64,000 nucleotides of DNA from Escherichia coli (GTDB lineage Bacteria; Pseudomonadota; Gammaproteobacteria; Enterobacterales; Enterobacteriaceae): NCBI RefSeq assembly GCF_003790525.1, contig NZ_CP033636.1; one strand, given 5' to 3'. Both the position numbers and the translations under genes were made by a program. The notes under the pieces were generated by a model, which worked only from the letters and a program-made list of their open reading frames with translations, was not told where the DNA came from and searched no databases. Each line of letters begins with the position of its first letter. Positions within the stretch are counted from its first letter, which is position 1. This document shows, piece by piece, positions 20,308-28,836 of the stretch.

Positions 20308-22388
20308 TGAAACTTCCTTAGAAATTTATTAAGATTTTTGATATCGAGATTTTGACGCAAAGTAACTTTTCCGGCCTTCTTGAAAAGCATTTCCGACAGA
20401 GTTGTGTTTGGCTTCATTTGTTTCTCAGCAACAGCAATAGGGATTTGGCCTACAACCTTCCTGCCATCTTGAAGCCTGGCAACTATGTGAAACATAGGGA
20501 CCTGACCCAAGAGATCCTTTGGAATACTCTCTTCTAAAGTTGTCTGCTTTCTTTCTGAGATTGAACCTGAGAAGTTATTATGCGGCAAAGATGTTTCTGA
20601 ACCGGTCGTATAAGTGACCATATTTGTGCTTATCGCACTCTTACCAAAGTTCTCTACAACAAGCGTCTGAGTAGGAGTATCGTTGACTCGCAAGCTTATA
20701 TAATTGTTGCAGAGCCCCGTAATTCGATTGGCAGTTTCAACACTTGCCGCAGCAATAAAGTCGGAGATGGTTTGGGTGCAAATAAACAGTGCAATTTTCG
20801 CTGCACGACCCTGCGCCAGAAGGTTAATCATAGGGTTGTTAATGGCTGAGTGTGCCTCATCAACAAAAATACTTATCCTGGAATTAGCTGACATATCACC
20901 ATCCTGAGCGTTGTAGCGACTACCGGCACAGGAGGTCAGATCTGACATTATTAATTGAGAAATAGCAGCTGCTGTATCGGGGTTTGAAAGGCCATCAAGC
21001 GAAATGTATAGCACCCCGCCAGTGCTGAACATCCCTTCGCTTGTTACAATTTCTCTTGATGATACTGAGTTCGGGTTAGGAGATAAAAGCTCATTTAAAG
21101 GTTTTTCAATGAGCATATCGAAAACAGGCATAATACCTGCGGTCATTTTAGCCATATGCTCTGGGTCGGACATTGAGTAATCAATAAGCTGGGAAACAGT
21201 ATCTAACCAGTCTATTTGTTCGGACCCCTCGTAATTCATGAAATGAGCCGTAAACCATTCAGCGAGACGCTTGAAACGTACCGGCAAGGTTTCGTTAGCG
21301 ACGTACTTAACTTTTTCGGTCCAGACATCGTAACCATAATATCTCGCGTAACATGACTCCATTACCTTGACTGTAAGATTCACAATAGACATGTGGCTTT
21401 TCATGTTCTTGTGAATCAGATAAATAGAAGGCTTTTTCTCTATGTAAGAAAGCCCGGAAATCACATTGGAAACGAGAGCCTTGGCATACTGAACGAATGG
21501 GTTAACCTCACCGGGAACTGTCACCAAGCTCAAAAGACGAGATGTTAGGTCAGAAACATTAGTATAGGTGTTGCAGACATCAATACAGACCGAAGATGCT
21601 GGCTGGCCAGGATGAAATTTATAGAAAGGAAGACCGAGGGTCTTAGCCTCTTCCATTAGAGATTCTCGCCACTCTGCATCGTTCTTTGGATCTATGACAA
21701 CAACAACATGACCAAGATGAAGCATGCTAATGCTTAGTAAACGCTGTAGCACCGTTTTCCCGGTACCCACGTTTCCGGTTATCAGAGTATGACCAAACCA
21801 ATTGTCTTCAGTTACAAATATGGGTTCCCTACGTTCCACAGCAAAAATTGCATTGCTGCCGCCCATCTTACGAGCCATTGCGTCAAAATGTCTCTTAATT
21901 GGGTTGAAGACGAATGGCAACTCGATCTCACGTTTATCACTGGAGAGGTTAGCTATTTGATATGCCCGATCCGCATGTTCCGGGCCCCACTCAAACCCAT
22001 CACAAAAATAGGACTTTCGCTCGGGTATATCCTTATTTTTATTTTGATAATCCTGAACCAGTTGACGATACTTTCGCTCATTGGAGAAAAAGTTACTTTT
22101 GTTAATTACACGCAGTGAATCAAGACTAACGAACATGAAATGTCGCTTGAATACACGCCAATGAGCCATCAAGAATGGCGCTGCTGTTTTGCAACGATAA
22201 AGGCACAGCAAAAAAAGCAATATTGAGGTGAACAGAACTATTGGGGCGATGTCCAGTCCGTCTGAAGAAAGTCCCATATAAAGCATAGAAACCGAACAAA
22301 TCAAAAGTATTGAGGCACTACGATACTCAAGAATAGGCCGATAAAAATTCTCTTGTGCATGGAGGTTAGTCCTCTTCGAATCTGACAT
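20304..22388 (-). CDS. traG: type IV coupling protein (TraG/TraD/VirD4 family), IncHI TraG-like (694 aa)
   Basis: Two N-terminal TM helices, Walker A ITGNVGTGKT, Walker B-like ISIFVDEAHS; directly downstream of relaxase. Confidence 0.65.
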   Translation of the reverse strand: MSDSKRTNLHAQENFYRPILEYRSASILLICSVSMLYMGLSSDGLDIAPIVLFTSILLFLLCLYRCKTAAPFLMAHWRVFKRHFMFVSLDSLRVINKSNFFSNERKYRQLVQDYQNKNKDIPERKSYFCDGFEWGPEHADRAYQIANLSSDKREIELPFVFNPIKRHFDAMARKMGGSNAIFAVERREPIFVTEDNWFGHTLITGNVGTGKTVLQRLLSISMLHLGHVVVVIDPKNDAEWRESLMEEAKTLGLPFYKFHPGQPASSVCIDVCNTYTNVSDLTSRLLSLVTVPGEVNPFVQYAKALVSNVISGLSYIEKKPSIYLIHKNMKSHMSIVNLTVKVMESCYARYYGYDVWTEKVKYVANETLPVRFKRLAEWFTAHFMNYEGSEQIDWLDTVSQLIDYSMSDPEHMAKMTAGIMPVFDMLIEKPLNELLSPNPNSVSSREIVTSEGMFSTGGVLYISLDGLSNPDTAAAISQLIMSDLTSCAGSRYNAQDGDMSANSRISIFVDEAHSAINNPMINLLAQGRAAKIALFICTQTISDFIAAASVETANRITGLCNNYISLRVNDTPTQTLVVENFGKSAISTNMVTYTTGSETSLPHNNFSGSISERKQTTLEESIPKDLLGQVPMFHIVARLQDGRKVVGQIPIAVAEKQMKPNTTLSEMLFKKAGKVTLRQNLDIKNLNKFLRKFH

Positions 22389-25300
22389 TATAGGTTCCCA
22401 GCCTCTTTCAGGTTATTGATAATTCGTTCAATGTCCACTTTCGCCCGGTCTGATGCGGCCAGCAAAGTAGGCATGTTAAATGCATGGCATTTTGTATTGA
22501 TCACAGCACCAGAATTAACGAGGTACTGAGGAAGCTTATTGAAAAGATCTTGAGCCTCTAACTGCGACCCAAATTTTTCCACGCAAGATTGGGTCAGATA
22601 GAGAGTATTAGGAGTACTTACCATAAATCTGTTTTTGCGCTTTCTTTTAAACGCCACCTCCATTTTGGACAGAATTTGATGCAGTACTGACGCAATTTCT
22701 ACAAATTCAAGCTCTGTAACGTCACCTTCGCTTATAAGCGAGAATTCACCATTTTGGTCTGATTCAGTAGTTGCAAAGACTTTACTGTTCAGATTGTGAC
22801 CAGAAACAGGTGATGCTGGTTTTTGTACTTCTGCTTTGTCCGATGATTTATTCCGGTTGCGCTTGGGATTTTGTTTTTCTACCGGTGCTGTTGGGGCGAA
22901 CAGTCTGGCCAGTGCTGGCGAAAGATGATGCCCCTTAGCGTCTGTGGGCGCATGCTCTCCATTTGATTCTTCAAGTACAGGAGGTAAGGCGGGCTCTTCA
23001 CTTGCCATCACACTGGTTGCGGCTGCTTCGGTCTGGGAATACACAACTTCAGCTGGTGGTGGGCAGTTACCCTCAGTATCTGGTTCTGAGTTTTCTTGTC
23101 CTACAGAAACATCCATAGAGCGTTCAATCGTACCCTGGGGATCAGCGTTCTGTTCTCGGTTAAGTTCTGGTAATTCTGACGGCTCGGGGAGAAGCTTTTC
23201 ATTATGGACCGAAGAGCTTGTTGCACAACTACCGACTTCTGGCCGAGAAACACTAAGCTGTGTGAAATCGGTATAATCAATGATCTCATGCTCTTCATCT
23301 TCTTCCTCAAAAAGATGTTGATAATGTTCATATTCCACAGCCTCAGTTTTCAGCGGACCAGTCGCGGATGCACTATCGGTTCCATGATATTCCACGTCGC
23401 CAGAATGTTCTTCGACTGCATTTACACGTGGGGGAGGCAGCTCAAGCGTTTGCTTTGGACGTGGGGCAGAGTTTTCAACAGAAGACTCATCATTAATCAC
23501 TAATGCCTGATACATAGAAGTATTGAAAAGTGACTTTAAAGTTGTTGGCCTTCTTGGCTCATGATAGGTGAGCTGGAACCCGGCGCAGTTATCGCCGAGC
23601 TGGACTAAACGCAGATCGTCAATGTCCCTTACTATCCACATTCCATCGAGAGAGCCTTCTCTGAATGTCAGTTGGAAATAGGGCTCTTCACTAAATGCTT
23701 TTTCATCTAATCCCGGCAGCAATGCCATAGTGGCATCTATGTTGAGGTAGGGGACAGCATCTACACACACTATATAGTCATTGGAAAGTGGAGCGCTTAA
23801 AAGGAGTTCATGAAGTTGGTTGACCAGGACATGGGATTCCGTGTCCTTTGCCGATTCATCTTCACTTTCTTCTATATCAGGAATGACAGGATCAGCTGCT
23901 TCCTCACCCTCAGATTTAACTATCTGCGTGTCATTATCAATTTCATTATCACTTTCGGCTTTCTTCTCAAAATCGTCGGATGAGCCTTCATTTTTCTTAG
24001 AATGTATATCAACATCAATAGAGGCAGTGGAGCGGCCTAAATCATTAACCTTAAGAACAGCCGTCTCAACAGTATCAGTAATTTTAGTTATAGCGTCCCG
24101 ACCGGGCACTGGTCTTCTGTATTCAGTAACTGTTTTTTGCTCGTCAATGTAAATAAAGTCTTTATTGGCATTAACGCTAAAAAGACCCGGCACTGAGTCA
24201 GGGATTTTATAGGAATCAAAGATTAAACCAATCCACCTTAGCTTAAGAAGGTTATAGAATTCTAGTTTCCCTATCCCATTTCTAAAGATGTTTGATATTT
24301 CGTTTTCCGAATAGATACCCGGAATGAAGTAGTGAACGACACGCTCATCATCATAGGGCTCGACGTAACCACGTTGAACTAGGGATTCTACCAATACCGT
24401 CTTACCAGCCTCTCCCTGAGGGAAGTTATATTTATGTAATTCGAAATCATTGAGAACAAAATCAAGGAATGCGTTCTCGTTAAGGTATACCTCACCATTT
24501 ACGATAATGATGTGCATAGGCTTAGCATTGTAATTGTTGATATTGATACTGGTAAAGTTGTGCTTGATGGTACTAATGGCCCTTGCTGCTGCATCATTAG
24601 AACGCAGACCCATGATAGGGTCACGTAAAACATTAAGGTCTGTACCAGTAGAATAGAAATCAGCGGTCCTCACGCATTTAGACAAAAAGTCATTCCCATC
24701 AGTATAAACGTTTAGGGCGGTGATCATTTTTGAATAAACACGTTCTTTATTTACCCGATCCAAAAATGCAAGACATACCGGGTTTAGGATTCGCTCAAGG
24801 AAAACGCTGGACCAGATATTATGTTGATTATGAATACGCTTTCGCCAGTGGATTTCGTATTCAACCACGTCATTTTCACGTGCCCAGTCAAGAAGACTTT
24901 GTGAGCTTGGCGTCCAAATGATCGGACTAGCTAAATTCAGGCTTACAATATCGAGATCGTAAACCTTTCCGGCATCATGGACTAAACCACAGATAAACGC
25001 AGCATAGAGATATACTTTTCTACGGACTACTTCTTCATCTTGATATCCGATTGGTCTCAGTTCTGAGTGATGCGCATTTTTTAAAGAGAGTATGGCCACT
25101 TCCAGGCTGTGAGAAAGTAACCCACCAATACCATTATGATGATGATTTTCGGAAGCTGGCAAAAGATGTATCCAGCGAACATATTCAACCAAGGGCTTTA
25201 ATACTAAATTAGTAAATGTATATGCATCGTCCCTGATGTCGCTATCGCTGATAGCTAACATCATTGAAATTGAGTGCAGCTTTTCCCGATACAGAGACAG

Positions 25301-25540
25301 GATTGACTGTTCATTAAATGTCTGTATGCCCGTCGGACGAGTTGGATACTCGATGAATTTCAGGACTTCTGGATTTGGATGATCAGGAACAGTGTACTTC
25401 TGATCTCCTAGAATCTGCGCAAAAGGAGAGAGGCTTGATATATCCTCAATCATTACAGAGGTTGCATCATTCTCCTGAGATGAGAATATCCCCAAAATCC
25501 GTTTAATACATAAATACAGCGCCCTGAAATTCATCATCAT
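22388..25540 (-). CDS. traI: MOBH-type conjugative relaxase, IncHI TraI-like (1050 aa)
   Basis: HD-hydrolase-like metal-binding motifs (HHHNGIGGLLSHSLEV, GLVHDAGKVYD) typical of MOBH relaxases; long acidic low-complexity C-terminal half. Confidence 0.6.
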   Translation of the reverse strand: MMMNFRALYLCIKRILGIFSSQENDATSVMIEDISSLSPFAQILGDQKYTVPDHPNPEVLKFIEYPTRPTGIQTFNEQSILSLYREKLHSISMMLAISDSDIRDDAYTFTNLVLKPLVEYVRWIHLLPASENHHHNGIGGLLSHSLEVAILSLKNAHHSELRPIGYQDEEVVRRKVYLYAAFICGLVHDAGKVYDLDIVSLNLASPIIWTPSSQSLLDWARENDVVEYEIHWRKRIHNQHNIWSSVFLERILNPVCLAFLDRVNKERVYSKMITALNVYTDGNDFLSKCVRTADFYSTGTDLNVLRDPIMGLRSNDAAARAISTIKHNFTSININNYNAKPMHIIIVNGEVYLNENAFLDFVLNDFELHKYNFPQGEAGKTVLVESLVQRGYVEPYDDERVVHYFIPGIYSENEISNIFRNGIGKLEFYNLLKLRWIGLIFDSYKIPDSVPGLFSVNANKDFIYIDEQKTVTEYRRPVPGRDAITKITDTVETAVLKVNDLGRSTASIDVDIHSKKNEGSSDDFEKKAESDNEIDNDTQIVKSEGEEAADPVIPDIEESEDESAKDTESHVLVNQLHELLLSAPLSNDYIVCVDAVPYLNIDATMALLPGLDEKAFSEEPYFQLTFREGSLDGMWIVRDIDDLRLVQLGDNCAGFQLTYHEPRRPTTLKSLFNTSMYQALVINDESSVENSAPRPKQTLELPPPRVNAVEEHSGDVEYHGTDSASATGPLKTEAVEYEHYQHLFEEEDEEHEIIDYTDFTQLSVSRPEVGSCATSSSVHNEKLLPEPSELPELNREQNADPQGTIERSMDVSVGQENSEPDTEGNCPPPAEVVYSQTEAAATSVMASEEPALPPVLEESNGEHAPTDAKGHHLSPALARLFAPTAPVEKQNPKRNRNKSSDKAEVQKPASPVSGHNLNSKVFATTESDQNGEFSLISEGDVTELEFVEIASVLHQILSKMEVAFKRKRKNRFMVSTPNTLYLTQSCVEKFGSQLEAQDLFNKLPQYLVNSGAVINTKCHAFNMPTLLAASDRAKVDIERIINNLKEAGNL

Positions 25541-25543
25541 ACC

Positions 25544-26281
25544 TTATCGACGTTTGCCTGACAGTTCGGCTGCAATGTATGCCTGCACACTTTTATATTG
25601 CATTACTTTGGTGATGAACTCTGCTGGACTGTATGGCCCATCCTTACGGCGAGAAACATTCAGAGTCTTTTTCACATTCTCAACATATAAATTAATACTC
25701 TTTATAATGTTGTGAGACATAACCGGATAGTCGCTTACAGCCAGTAAACCCAATGAGTTGTACTCATACATTGTGTTCATGAGCTGGTTCATCTCGAAGA
25801 TGTACTTGTAAAACCTCATGGTGTTGTGGTTATTGAAGTTGAGTTGTACTGGTTCAAAACTGAAAGGTACAAACTGAGTTGATGACATGAATGAGTCATT
25901 CTTGTCGAACTCAATTGACTTAATATAAGCAACAAGATTTTCTTTCATCTTATTGTTTTCTTCATGCAGCTCGTTGAACCAATCCTGAATAGCCTGAACA
26001 AGGTCAGGATGTTTAACTGCATCAACCGTTTTAAAGAGAGAGGAAATAGCGATACTCACATCATCAAAACCTCTGATGACTGCTCCATTTCTGGCAGTTA
26101 AAAACCGGTTAAAATCTGGGGTGCCGGGGTTAATAATAACTTTGGCCATACCCTGGTGCTCTGGTCTACGTTGAGTAGAAGTTTGAGCGTTTACGCCTTG
26201 CTTTTTATTTGAACCTTTTACCATTACATCTTTTGGTTCAATGTTAATACGCTCATTGTCCGTGATAATTGCGTCGGTCAT
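25544..26281 (-). CDS. hypothetical relaxosome-operon protein (245 aa)
   Basis: ORF track; GGTGG RBS; 4-nt gap to traI. Confidence 0.4.
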   Translation of the reverse strand: MTDAIITDNERINIEPKDVMVKGSNKKQGVNAQTSTQRRPEHQGMAKVIINPGTPDFNRFLTARNGAVIRGFDDVSIAISSLFKTVDAVKHPDLVQAIQDWFNELHEENNKMKENLVAYIKSIEFDKNDSFMSSTQFVPFSFEPVQLNFNNHNTMRFYKYIFEMNQLMNTMYEYNSLGLLAVSDYPVMSHNIIKSINLYVENVKKTLNVSRRKDGPYSPAEFITKVMQYKSVQAYIAAELSGKRR

Positions 26282-26763
26282 TGTGCCACCTTAGTTTTTG
26301 AGTATTGACGGATTTTTCGTCCAAGTTCGATATATGCTGAATGATAGAGCTCAAGCATTTCTCTGTAAGGCTCCAGCAATGCTTCCGTTTCAGAAATCAT
26401 TTCGTATTCCCAGCTGGCATGGTTTACAAAACAGTTCTTAGAATATTTTCCACTTTTCATTGGTTGCACCCGTTTTGACATGTGACTAGGCGCTCTTGTT
26501 TTATAAGGGCTGAACTGATGCCAAGTGATCGTTACTTTTCTGGCATTACCAATTAGCTCAACTTTTGGTGCGTAAGAACCCAGATACTCCCTCTTTGGAA
26601 CTTTGCTATGTCGGGTAAGGTTAATCTCTTGGTGGTTTCGTTCCTTCCACTTGATCCAGTATTTTGTAATGAGATCTTCAGCCTCAACACGCAAACCTTC
26701 AATCTGAGCACGTAAATTTTTACGTGTTAGCTCTATAGAACTTATAAGATTCGAATTACTCAT
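26278..26763 (-). CDS. hypothetical protein, possible relaxosome accessory factor (TraH-like), about 161 aa
   Basis: Start reassigned to ATG preceded by AGGAGG (track ORF extends to 26817); first gene leftward of the oriT-like region. Confidence 0.4.
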   Translation of the reverse strand: MSNSNLISSIELTRKNLRAQIEGLRVEAEDLITKYWIKWKERNHQEINLTRHSKVPKREYLGSYAPKVELIGNARKVTITWHQFSPYKTRAPSHMSKRVQPMKSGKYSKNCFVNHASWEYEMISETEALLEPYREMLELYHSAYIELGRKIRQYSKTKVAQ

Positions 26764-27030
26764 GACGCCTCCTGATGTGAAATTACTATACCGGAGGAAA
26801 TTTCCGTTTTTTTTCACGAACAGAAGATTTTTGAATGCTCTTTGATGAGGGAATTGAACAGATGTAATGCACTCGCTGTTTCCCCCATTCGGGAGGGGCC
26901 TTCAGAAACAGTAACAGCGAGTTTAGCCTCACTTCCATCGCTACCCTCTAAAGTTACTTTTGAGGGAATGACCATTGTGGATTATTGCTTTTGATAATGT
27001 GCATTGCTCTATTAAAGTTATACATATATC

Positions 27031-27194
27031 TAGTGCCACTTTTCCAAAAAAAATGACCCTATGGAACTTTGTCCATAGTGACACTTTTATAAAAAGTGAC
27101 CCTATGACGACATTACATAGGGTCACTTTTCAAACATAAGTGACCCTATGTGAGGTATTCATAGGGTCACTTTTCTTTGTTTAGTGATCCTATG
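27031..27194. promoter_or_regulatory. oriT-like region: array of three inverted-repeat pairs plus extra half-sites, consensus half-site CATAGGGTCACTTTT
   Basis: AATGACCCTATGG-N8-CCATAGTGACAC; AAAAGTGACCCTATG-N9-CATAGGGTCACTTTTC; ATAAGTGACCCTATG-N7-CATAGGGTCACTTTTC; lies between divergent transfer operons. Confidence 0.55.
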
Positions 27195-27521
27195 TAAGCA
27201 TGAGGTTGATGAAAAGTAAAAATGTCAGTTTATGACGGTCAGTGAAAGACGTCGTTATTCTAATCCAACGTTGGGAGGGGCTGGATTTAGGTTTTTTTTT
27301 AATCGCTTCACATTTCGTTAGCATGCGAAGAAATTTTGATAAAATTCTGGTCAGTTTGGTTAAAAAGTGTTACAAGTAAGCGGTGTGGTTGAAGGGATAG
27401 ATTTAAGGCTTATTCAAGCCTTAAGAAAATACTAAAAGTTACTTTTCACCCTACCGAACACCTAACAAAAAATCCATGTTGAAGATTTGAACAATTGTAA
27501 TGGCGCAAGGACAATCAGCAC

Positions 27522-28323: not shown

Positions 28324-28836
28324 ATGGCAAAGGTCGATCAAACAAAAGCTAATGCTCTATTGCGAGCAGCAAGGACTATGTCGCTTGGGGCAAATAAAAA
28401 TACAATACGAATTTTGTACGGTAATCATGTTGCTGAAAATATCGATTTTGAGCCTGGTGCAAAAACAAAACTCAAAAAAGGTATCCGGGGCTGGAGCAAA
28501 CGCACAGATAACCGCCGAGCTTTTTCTGCTGTTATTGATGTCGCAGTTAACTATTTTGGTTTTGATCCAATAAATCCGGAAGCGAGTTTTCGGCAAATTG
28601 ACTTCAACCGAATAATGAGTGTCCTTCATAATCTGGGATACTTTGTATGCGCACCGGAAGTTAATAAAATAATAGAAATCCTTACTTCTATGAAAGAAAT
28701 TGAAGAACTAGGTGCCTGCGAAAAATGTAAACGCCCATACATTGTGCCAGTGACAAATGATGCTTATTGTCCACGTTGCAGATTATCTTCAACTGCTTCA
28801 GCCATAGAGAGGTATTCTCAAGAAGAATTAGATTAA
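28324..28836 (+). CDS. hypothetical protein with C-terminal Cys4 zinc-ribbon-like motif (170 aa), possible TrhY-like
   Basis: CEKCKRPY...CPRCRL; start 2 nt after upstream stop. Confidence 0.4.
   Translation: MAKVDQTKANALLRAARTMSLGANKNTIRILYGNHVAENIDFEPGAKTKLKKGIRGWSKRTDNRRAFSAVIDVAVNYFGFDPINPEASFRQIDFNRIMSVLHNLGYFVCAPEVNKIIEILTSMKEIEELGACEKCKRPYIVPVTNDAYCPRCRLSSTASAIERYSQEELD

Follow-up and report, generated by a model that had tools for sequence, protein, structure and literature searches.

An array of eight alternating half-sites beside traH as a candidate accessory-protein binding region of the IncHI transfer origin

IncHI plasmids carry a cluster of inverted repeats between two divergent transfer operons, and the question considered here is whether this cluster belongs to the transfer origin (oriT) or serves another function, such as the regulation of the neighboring genes. 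The stretch of Escherichia coli DNA that was analyzed (the window, 64 kb) represents the Tra1 region of an IncHI2 resistance plasmid and shows 100% identity to many IncHI2 plasmids. That the oriT of IncHI plasmids resides in this intergenic region is already known, and oriTs normally contain repeat arrays. Lawley et al. are said to have reported in 2002 that the cloned traH-trhR intergenic region is mobilized by R27, an IncHI1 plasmid with a homologous traH-trhR locus, and the oriT of R27 was thus reportedly defined at the level of this cloned region. To our knowledge, no nick site has been mapped in MOBH1 elements (IncHI, IncA/C, IncT, SXT/R391), and the DNA site of MobI is undefined in these elements.

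A MobI-like gene directly adjoins oriT in SXT and R27 (PMC10838148), and TraH of R27 is the MobI-like factor that is required together with the MOBH11 relaxase (bioRxiv 10.1101/2025.04.21.649884). MobI of IncC self-associates, binds the C-terminal domain of the relaxase and is 'thought to' bind oriT at a site that is undefined (bioRxiv 10.1101/2025.04.21.649884). The IncA/C oriT has been experimentally delimited to approximately 150 bp containing multiple inverted repeats and 14-bp direct repeats of unknown function, and the mapping of its nick site was attempted without success (PMC5587640). No description of an eight-half-site array, its binder or a nick site in the R27 oriT was found in the searchable literature, and a full-text search for the half-site sequence returned nothing relevant.

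Architecture of the array and its gene context

The array is located inside the 758-bp traH-trhR intergenic region. The leftward genes are traJ (DUF4400), a hypothetical gene, traG (coupling protein), traI (22388-25540, minus strand; a MOBH relaxase by annotation and the proposed recruit of TraH), orf245 and traH, while trhR, trhY, trhF, trhH and trhG are transcribed rightward. The first-pass annotation had described this context correctly, with the relaxase operon on the left and an operon leading to trhF-trhH-trhG on the right. TraH (26278-26763, minus strand) is a mobilization factor of the MobI family (Pfam MobI PF19456, E 4.8e-22), and its gene is annotated as either mobI or traH. Measured from the traH start codon (26763), the array occupies the interval from 266 to 431 bp upstream, and such adjacency to a MobI-family gene and a relaxase operon is one of the features by which the oriT of a MOBH1 element is recognized. 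The IncHI oriT had been expected here by the first-pass annotation as well, and both the position of the array in the traH-trhR region and the reported location of the R27 MobI-like gene next to oriT (PMC10838148) agree with this.

In the window, the array spans positions 27029-27194 and consists of eight half-sites (HS1 to HS8), which are 15-mers with the consensus CATAGGGTCACTTTT and strictly alternate between the plus and the minus orientation. HS1 (TCTAGTGCCACTTTT, 27029-27043, plus) differs from the consensus by four mismatches and is a variant that is fused to a non-repeated edge element. HS2 (AAAAATGACCCTATG, 27049-27063, minus) and HS3 (CATAGTGACACTTTT, 27074-27088, plus) contain one and two mismatches, respectively, and HS4 (AAAAGTGACCCTATG, 27092-27106, minus) and HS5 (CATAGGGTCACTTTT, 27116-27130, plus) contain none. 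HS6 (ATAAGTGACCCTATG, 27136-27150, minus) has a single mismatch, HS7 (CATAGGGTCACTTTT, 27160-27174, plus) is again perfect, and HS8 (TTTAGTGATCCTATG, 27180-27194, minus; four mismatches) is degenerate in the window and perfect in IncHI1. The start-to-start spacings from HS1 to HS8 are 20, 25, 18, 24, 20, 24 and 20 bp, which results in periods of 42-45 bp for sites of the same orientation, and the centers of the 9-bp cores (TAGGGTCAC) are approximately 22 bp apart, i.e., roughly two helical turns. The three palindromes that had been noticed initially are the pairs HS2/3, HS4/5 and HS6/7, whose 15-mers face each other head to head at a distance of 9-10 bp, and the two additional half-sites are HS1 and HS8. 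A repeat search detected the arms at 27092-27106 and 27116-27130 as 100% complementary and 9 nt apart. An alternative and equally valid parse divides the array into four tail-to-tail dyads, CACTTTT-N3-5-AAAAGTG, which use all eight half-sites.

The G+C content of the array is 37%, compared with 48% for the window, and this AT-richness in combination with multiple inverted and direct repeats is likewise typical of an oriT. When 200 shuffled versions of the window were searched with a position weight matrix, the maximum was three hits per 170 bp versus the eight observed. Because the matrix was built from the eight sites themselves, this control is partly circular and the evidence from conservation carries more weight. 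Further copies of the half-site with up to two mismatches were found neither elsewhere in the 64-kb window nor in the other 137.5 kb of the IncHI2 plasmid pGD27-70, a portion that includes Tra2 (operons AC, Z and AN) as well as the genes for replication and partition. In pGD27-70 itself (NZ_MN232195.1, L024:2466-2500), a 35-bp duplication covers HS2 and the start of HS3. The ninth half-site that it would create was rejected, because an N within the duplication makes an assembly artefact the most likely explanation.

The position between divergent operons is compatible with a regulatory function, in which the array would control the divergent H (traH-traI) and R (trhR-trhY) promoters as an operator or as an upstream activating array, bound by TrhR/TrhY, HtdA or an autoregulating TraH and having no direct role in nicking. 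The operons activated by TrhR/TrhY in R27 are F, H, AC and Z (PMC7366339), and in IncA/C the oriT overlaps the mobI promoters (PMC5587640). A binding site of TrhR/TrhY should, however, recur at the F, AC and Z promoters. The motif does not, as it is confined to this single locus within approximately 200 kb of IncHI2 sequence and is missing upstream of trhF and from all of Tra2, which argues against a TrhR/TrhY operator. In addition, the array overlaps none of the promoter-like sites that were found. On the right, a consensus match (TTAGCA-16-TG-TAAAAT, 27318-27345, plus strand) represents a candidate promoter of trhR; it is separated from the array by approximately 125 bp and is part of a block that is conserved in the alignment of IncHI plasmids described below. 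On the left, a TATAGT hexamer would, if it is the promoter of the H operon, be located approximately 235 bp from the array. We therefore consider a purely regulatory function unlikely, though the array may have a regulatory side-role. Of the two options offered by the first-pass annotation, the oriT accessory-protein array is supported by the comparative evidence presented below, while the multi-dimer operator of a tra regulon is disfavored by the lack of the motif at other tra promoters.

Several elements in the vicinity of the array deserve a description of their own. The block at 27290-27385 (TTTTTTTAATCGCTTCACATTTCGTTAGCA ... TTGATAAAATTCTGGTNAGTTTGGTTAAAAAGTGTTACAAGTAAG) is strongly conserved in IncHI1, IncHI2 and a Photorhabdus plasmid and is absent from a copy of the array on a chromosomal island; its extended -10 site probably marks the trhR promoter and leader. 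The TATAGT hexamer, read directly from the sequence at 26785-26790 on the minus strand, precedes the start codon of traH by about 22 nt; it is conserved in IncHI1 and IncHI2 and is preceded by a poor -35 region (an A-run). Searches of Pfam and NCBIfam with TrhR, TrhY and Orf245 gave nothing significant. The C-terminus of TrhY (28324-28836) contains a four-cysteine motif, CEKC...CPRC, which recalls the zinc site of FlhC-type activators, although Pfam returned no significant match. Related MOBH12 elements employ the FlhDC-like activators SetCD/AcaCD.

A second repeated motif, the palindrome AAAGTNACTTT, is dispersed over the plasmid. It occurs 15 times in the window (at 1066, 9505, 9631, 15457, 20359, 22089, 23527, 26950, 27435, 27876, 30495, 38720, 40813, 41714 and 43278), compared with 0.09 copies expected, and the other 137.5 kb of the IncHI2 plasmid (L026-L028) contribute a further 33 copies; the palindrome is found in intergenic as well as coding DNA. 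Two of these copies, both AAAGTTACTTT, flank the array on the left (26950-26960) and on the right (27435-27445). This flanking arrangement is present in all IncHI-like lineages, including those with a different array core. The initial remark that half-site and palindrome share flanking arms holds at the sequence level, where the tail GTCACTTT equals one arm of AAAGTGACTTT. The plasmid-wide spread of the palindrome parallels the HtdA/TrhRY regulon reported for R27. A role of the motif at about -42 of a traH promoter, as expected for a class-II activator, was considered and rejected, as the geometry differs between IncHI2 and IncHI1 in the alignment.

Purifying selection and concerted change of the half-sites

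The intergenic region of the window was aligned with those of five plasmids, i.e., two IncHI2 plasmids, the IncHI1 plasmid pHCM1 and two plasmids typed as IncHI1B. In IncHI1-type plasmids, TraH, TrhR and TrhY are 76-85% identical to the proteins of the window (TraH 76%). Within this alignment, the half-sites are nearly invariant and the spacers have diverged, while the spacing is kept with a single 1-bp indel. HS2 and HS3 are kept, HS5 is unchanged, HS4 is the same in all six sequences, and pHCM1 contains all eight half-sites at the same spacing as the window. HS1, which deviates from the consensus, does not vary between IncHI1, IncHI2 and the Photorhabdus plasmid, and the E. coli island has the same variant. 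The aligned sequences show that the array is under purifying selection for both its sequence and its spacing, as expected for an accessory-protein array. When used alone as a query, the array matched 1,425 plasmid records, with an identity of ≥99% in 939 cases, and no feature is annotated on it among these matching records. Two insertion sequences that were considered as natural disruptions of the array were rejected: according to the annotation tables, the IS1 copy of pHNTS53-1 appears to lie inside trhR, and the IS4321 copy of LT883139 beside a truncated traH.

More distant lineages carry arrays of similar layout. The plasmid of Photorhabdus tasmaniensis (L014, JASNMP010000008.1; TraH 86%) contains only HS1-HS6 with a spacing of 20, 25, 18, 24 and 20 bp, located at intergenic positions 264-385 in the traH-leftward orientation. 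In two metagenomic contigs (L015 and L016; TraH 54%), which share the layout of the Photorhabdus plasmid, the copies read CATAGTGTYACTTTT with the core TAGTGTYAC, and the same series of spacings recurs in L015. The copies visible in a further, short contig (L017; TraH 59%) have the core TAGAGTCAC. Finally, Klebsiella plasmids of the IncHI1B/FIB type (MobI 38%) contain five or six alternating copies of CATTAGTACTTTTT, with the core TTAGTAC, at the same position. The copies are thus homogenized within each lineage and change together between lineages, as is evident from comparing these sequences, and the occurrence of one new sequence common to all copies per lineage points to a sequence-specific factor acting in trans. 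The concerted change accompanies the divergence of the neighboring proteins, as would be expected of an accessory-protein array. Nonetheless, it does not identify the cognate neighbor, because TraH, Orf245, TrhR and TrhY diverge in parallel, and co-variation within IncHI therefore cannot single out TraH.

The pattern of change also bears on the possibility that the repeats work as hairpins of the single strand that is transferred, for instance in termination by the relaxase, in priming or as a single-strand promoter, and not as binding sites in duplex DNA. When folded as single-stranded DNA, the region 27000-27220 reaches -39.8 and -41.2 kcal/mol for the two strands, which is far better than the shuffled controls (z of -7.7 and -7.9). 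Strong folding follows automatically from alternating half-sites, however, and selection for structure only would permit pairwise compensatory drift, whereas one sequence per lineage and joint change of all copies are observed. The even spacing of approximately 22 bp also fits recognition of the duplex. Hairpin formation as the primary function is accordingly improbable in our assessment.

A comparison beyond IncHI hints at the protein that may recognize the array. Among MOBH12 relatives, IncA, IncC, pAQU-like, Aeromonas and Rts1 plasmids contain, upstream of mobI, five to seven copies of a unit that is specific to the lineage and occurs in both orientations: IncA pRA1 and IncC pNDM-SAL each have five to six copies of a unit around AGATTCCAGATAGATAG, a pAQU-like Vibrio plasmid and an Aeromonas plasmid have five copies each, and Rts1 has seven CATAGGCAT-like units. 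trhR and trhY are absent from the vicinity of the arrays in these five plasmid types, and in the IncA, IncC, pAQU-like and Aeromonas plasmids the array has a ParM/StbA homologue as neighbor. In IncA/C, this repeat-bearing stretch coincides with the mapped oriT (PMC5587640). MobI is the only neighbor common to all arrays, and it is chiefly for this reason that TraH is proposed as the binder.

The array adjoins a mobI-family gene in every lineage examined, and this constancy also speaks against an iteron-like, partition or incompatibility site unrelated to transfer. A repeated array in intergenic DNA of 37% G+C, within a window of 48%, would suit such a site. The RepHI2 and RepB-type initiator genes and the ParA/ParB and ParM modules are located elsewhere on the plasmid, however, where the motif is absent, and we consider a role in replication or partition very improbable.

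The closest experimentally studied counterpart is the IncA/C oriT of R55 and R16a (Hegyi et al. 2017, PMC5587640), which resembles the IncHI locus in being AT-rich, in carrying a repeated unit in both orientations directly upstream of a mobI-family gene, and in requiring a MOBH1 relaxase together with a MobI-type factor. The differences are equally clear. The IncA/C unit AGATTCCAGATAGATAG is unrelated in sequence to the IncHI unit CATAGGGTCACTTTT, and the IncA/C array is irregular in orientation and spacing, while the IncHI array strictly alternates with cores approximately 22 bp apart. The relaxases belong to different clades (MOBH11 in IncHI, MOBH12 in IncA/C), and the MobI protein of IncHI is only about 19% identical to that of IncA. 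For pVCR94 and pAQU1, selectivity reportedly goes with the pairing of MobI and its array.

The island copy and the edge element

A copy of the array that lacks the neighboring transfer genes helps to define its portable part. A pattern scan with GTGACCCTATG-N8-10-CATAGGGTCAC across one genome per bacterial species returned L029, an IncHI2 plasmid, and L030, a contig of 6 kb bearing the label of a Bacillota MAG. In L030, six half-sites (2468-2600) lie beside an AlpA-family gene, and homologues of TraH, TraI, TrhR and TrhY are absent. The same arrangement of array and alpA is present in the chromosomes of E. coli EC2001 and LR-33. Among 5,426 complete genomes of this species, the island form was encountered in two, and a diverged version in a single metagenomic contig. 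Around the array, L030 and the EC2001 island are approximately 84% identical, with the sites retained in both. Chromosomal matches in LR536431 and NCTC9040 were not accepted as further islands of this type, because they are integrated IncHI1 segments in which traH is present.

The island of EC2001 (NZ_CP133811.1) comprises 20.3 kb (921162-941428), is inserted at a tRNA-Gly gene and is bordered by 17-bp direct repeats at 921162 and 941412. The proteins encoded on it are an integrase, two AlpA proteins, an Icd-like protein, a TOPRIM/DUF927 protein, SSB, an SLT-domain protein and a YafO toxin. A profile search detected no MobI in this island, tblastn no homologues of TraH, TraI, TraG, TrhR, TrhY or Orf245, and the island contains no T4SS genes and no copy of the dispersed palindrome AAAGTNACTTT. 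Its array is located at about 940286-940430 (L031:12245-12390). In the alignment of island and plasmid, similarity extends from the head of HS6 to just past AGTTATACATATATCTAG beyond HS1, and within this match the half-sites and the edge element are invariant, while the spacers differ. The spacing in the island (20, 24, 18, 25 and 20 bp) mirrors that of the plasmid.

The island can be read as a natural deletion experiment. By this comparison, the portable unit is the edge element together with HS1-6 (three dyads), approximately 150 bp in total, and it excludes the flanking promoter-like blocks and the dispersed motifs. The palindrome copy at 26950-26960, which is present in all IncHI-like lineages, is missing from the island and hence lies outside the portable module; the copy at 27435-27445 is missing as well. 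HS6 is the last half-site retained in both the Photorhabdus plasmid and the island. HS7 is missing from both and is thus probably accessory, and the retention of the same HS1-HS6 subset in the two elements suggests that HS7 and HS8 are dispensable.

SXT/R391 MGIs are genomic islands that carry only a helper-like oriT. More recently, the name 'iOriTs' has been given to islands with only an oriT resembling that of the helper (bioRxiv 10.64898/2026.01.13.699239). The EC2001 island is similar to both, as it combines an integrase and alpA with an array and edge element that match IncHI1/HI2, and carries no relaxase, MobI or T4SS; it differs from them in that its presumed helper would be an IncHI plasmid. 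Judging from its gene content, it is a candidate for an oriT-only element hitching on IncHI plasmids. The array also covers the region immediately upstream of alpA, ending 21 bp from the start codon, and because it abuts this start it could in the island be a helper-sensing operator instead of, or besides, an oriT. This lends some support to the operator explanation discussed above, against which stands the retention of the array in the island without the flanking promoter blocks or the IncHI regulators.

The edge element AGTTATACATATATCTAG (27016-27033; no strand assigned) abuts and overlaps HS1, marks the limit of plasmid-island similarity, and is a candidate for the nick region or for the site recognized by the relaxase. 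Directly left of the array, every IncHI-like lineage has the sequence T(T)ATACATATAT(AT)CTAGT. In L015, HS1 reads TCTAGTAGGTTC while the remaining half-sites conform to TAGTGTYAC, and the edge element is retained; the Klebsiella lineage has CTTATACATAAGTAAC at the corresponding position. Because it is conserved yet not repeated, the edge element is the best candidate for the part that is read by the more slowly evolving relaxase, and it is only on this basis that we infer a possible nick region at 27016-27033. The sequence ATATATCT was considered as a nick motif common to IncHI and IncA/C and rejected, as it is merely part of the repeat unit in IncA/C and is absent from the pAQU-like, Aeromonas and Rts1 plasmids.

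A putative relaxosome scaffold and its implications

Taken together, the array probably constitutes the accessory-protein (TraH/MobI) binding part of the IncHI oriT, where both the binder and the nick site are inferred from sequence comparison, and we hold this reading with reasonable though limited confidence. Multiple dyad sites near the nick, at which an oligomeric accessory protein recruits the relaxase, are familiar from TraM of F (sbmA-C), TrwA of R388 and TraJ of RP4. The IncHI array resembles these arrangements, with multiple dyad sites beside a candidate nick region. The accessory proteins of F, R388 and RP4 are, however, of the ribbon-helix-helix type or related to it, while the MobI model consists of a helical hairpin and a β-sheet. 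In this AlphaFold2 model of TraH, calculated from an alignment of 17 sequences (pLDDT 88.7, pTM 0.81), two long antiparallel helices (residues 3-48 and 119-160) are predicted to be joined by a small basic three-stranded sheet. No recognized DNA-binding fold is apparent in the model, which provides no independent support for DNA binding; the predicted fold is compatible with oligomerization.

TraH oligomers would occupy the eight alternately oriented half-sites, which, with cores approximately 22 bp apart, would all point to roughly the same face of the DNA. The nucleoprotein complex formed in this way would serve as a scaffold that recruits the MOBH relaxase TraI, which would nick nearby, possibly in the edge element AGTTATACATATATCTAG beside HS1. 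The edge element and HS1-6 would form the portable core, with HS7 and HS8 as accessory sites. A more far-reaching version of this reading, which we put forward tentatively and regard as possible but less than probable, would amount to a first explicit recognition code for MobI. Each half-site, CATAGG + GTCACTTTT, would be the target of one subunit, and the eight subunits together would assemble into a continuous alternating filament with a period of approximately 22 bp. The edge element and three dyads would represent a self-sufficient, portable oriT that has been captured by islands to hitch on IncHI resistance plasmids, and in these islands the array may also couple the expression of alpA (excision) to the presence of the helper.

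Beyond what was already known about this oriT, the analysis adds three points: the anatomy of the eight sites and the constancy of their spacing, a concerted evolution by which the array is tied to the MobI family, and an island with a minimal copy. No report of chromosomal islands being mobilized by IncHI plasmids was found in the searchable literature. IncHI1 and IncHI2 plasmids are associated with multidrug resistance in typhoid and carry mcr-1, mcr-9 and carbapenemase genes, and their relaxosome is almost uncharacterized. The unusual regularity of the array and the existence of a natural minimal version of approximately 150 bp provide a defined substrate for footprinting, structural analyses and nick mapping. 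Moreover, the island suggests that IncHI plasmids, in addition to their own transfer, may mobilize chromosomal islands.
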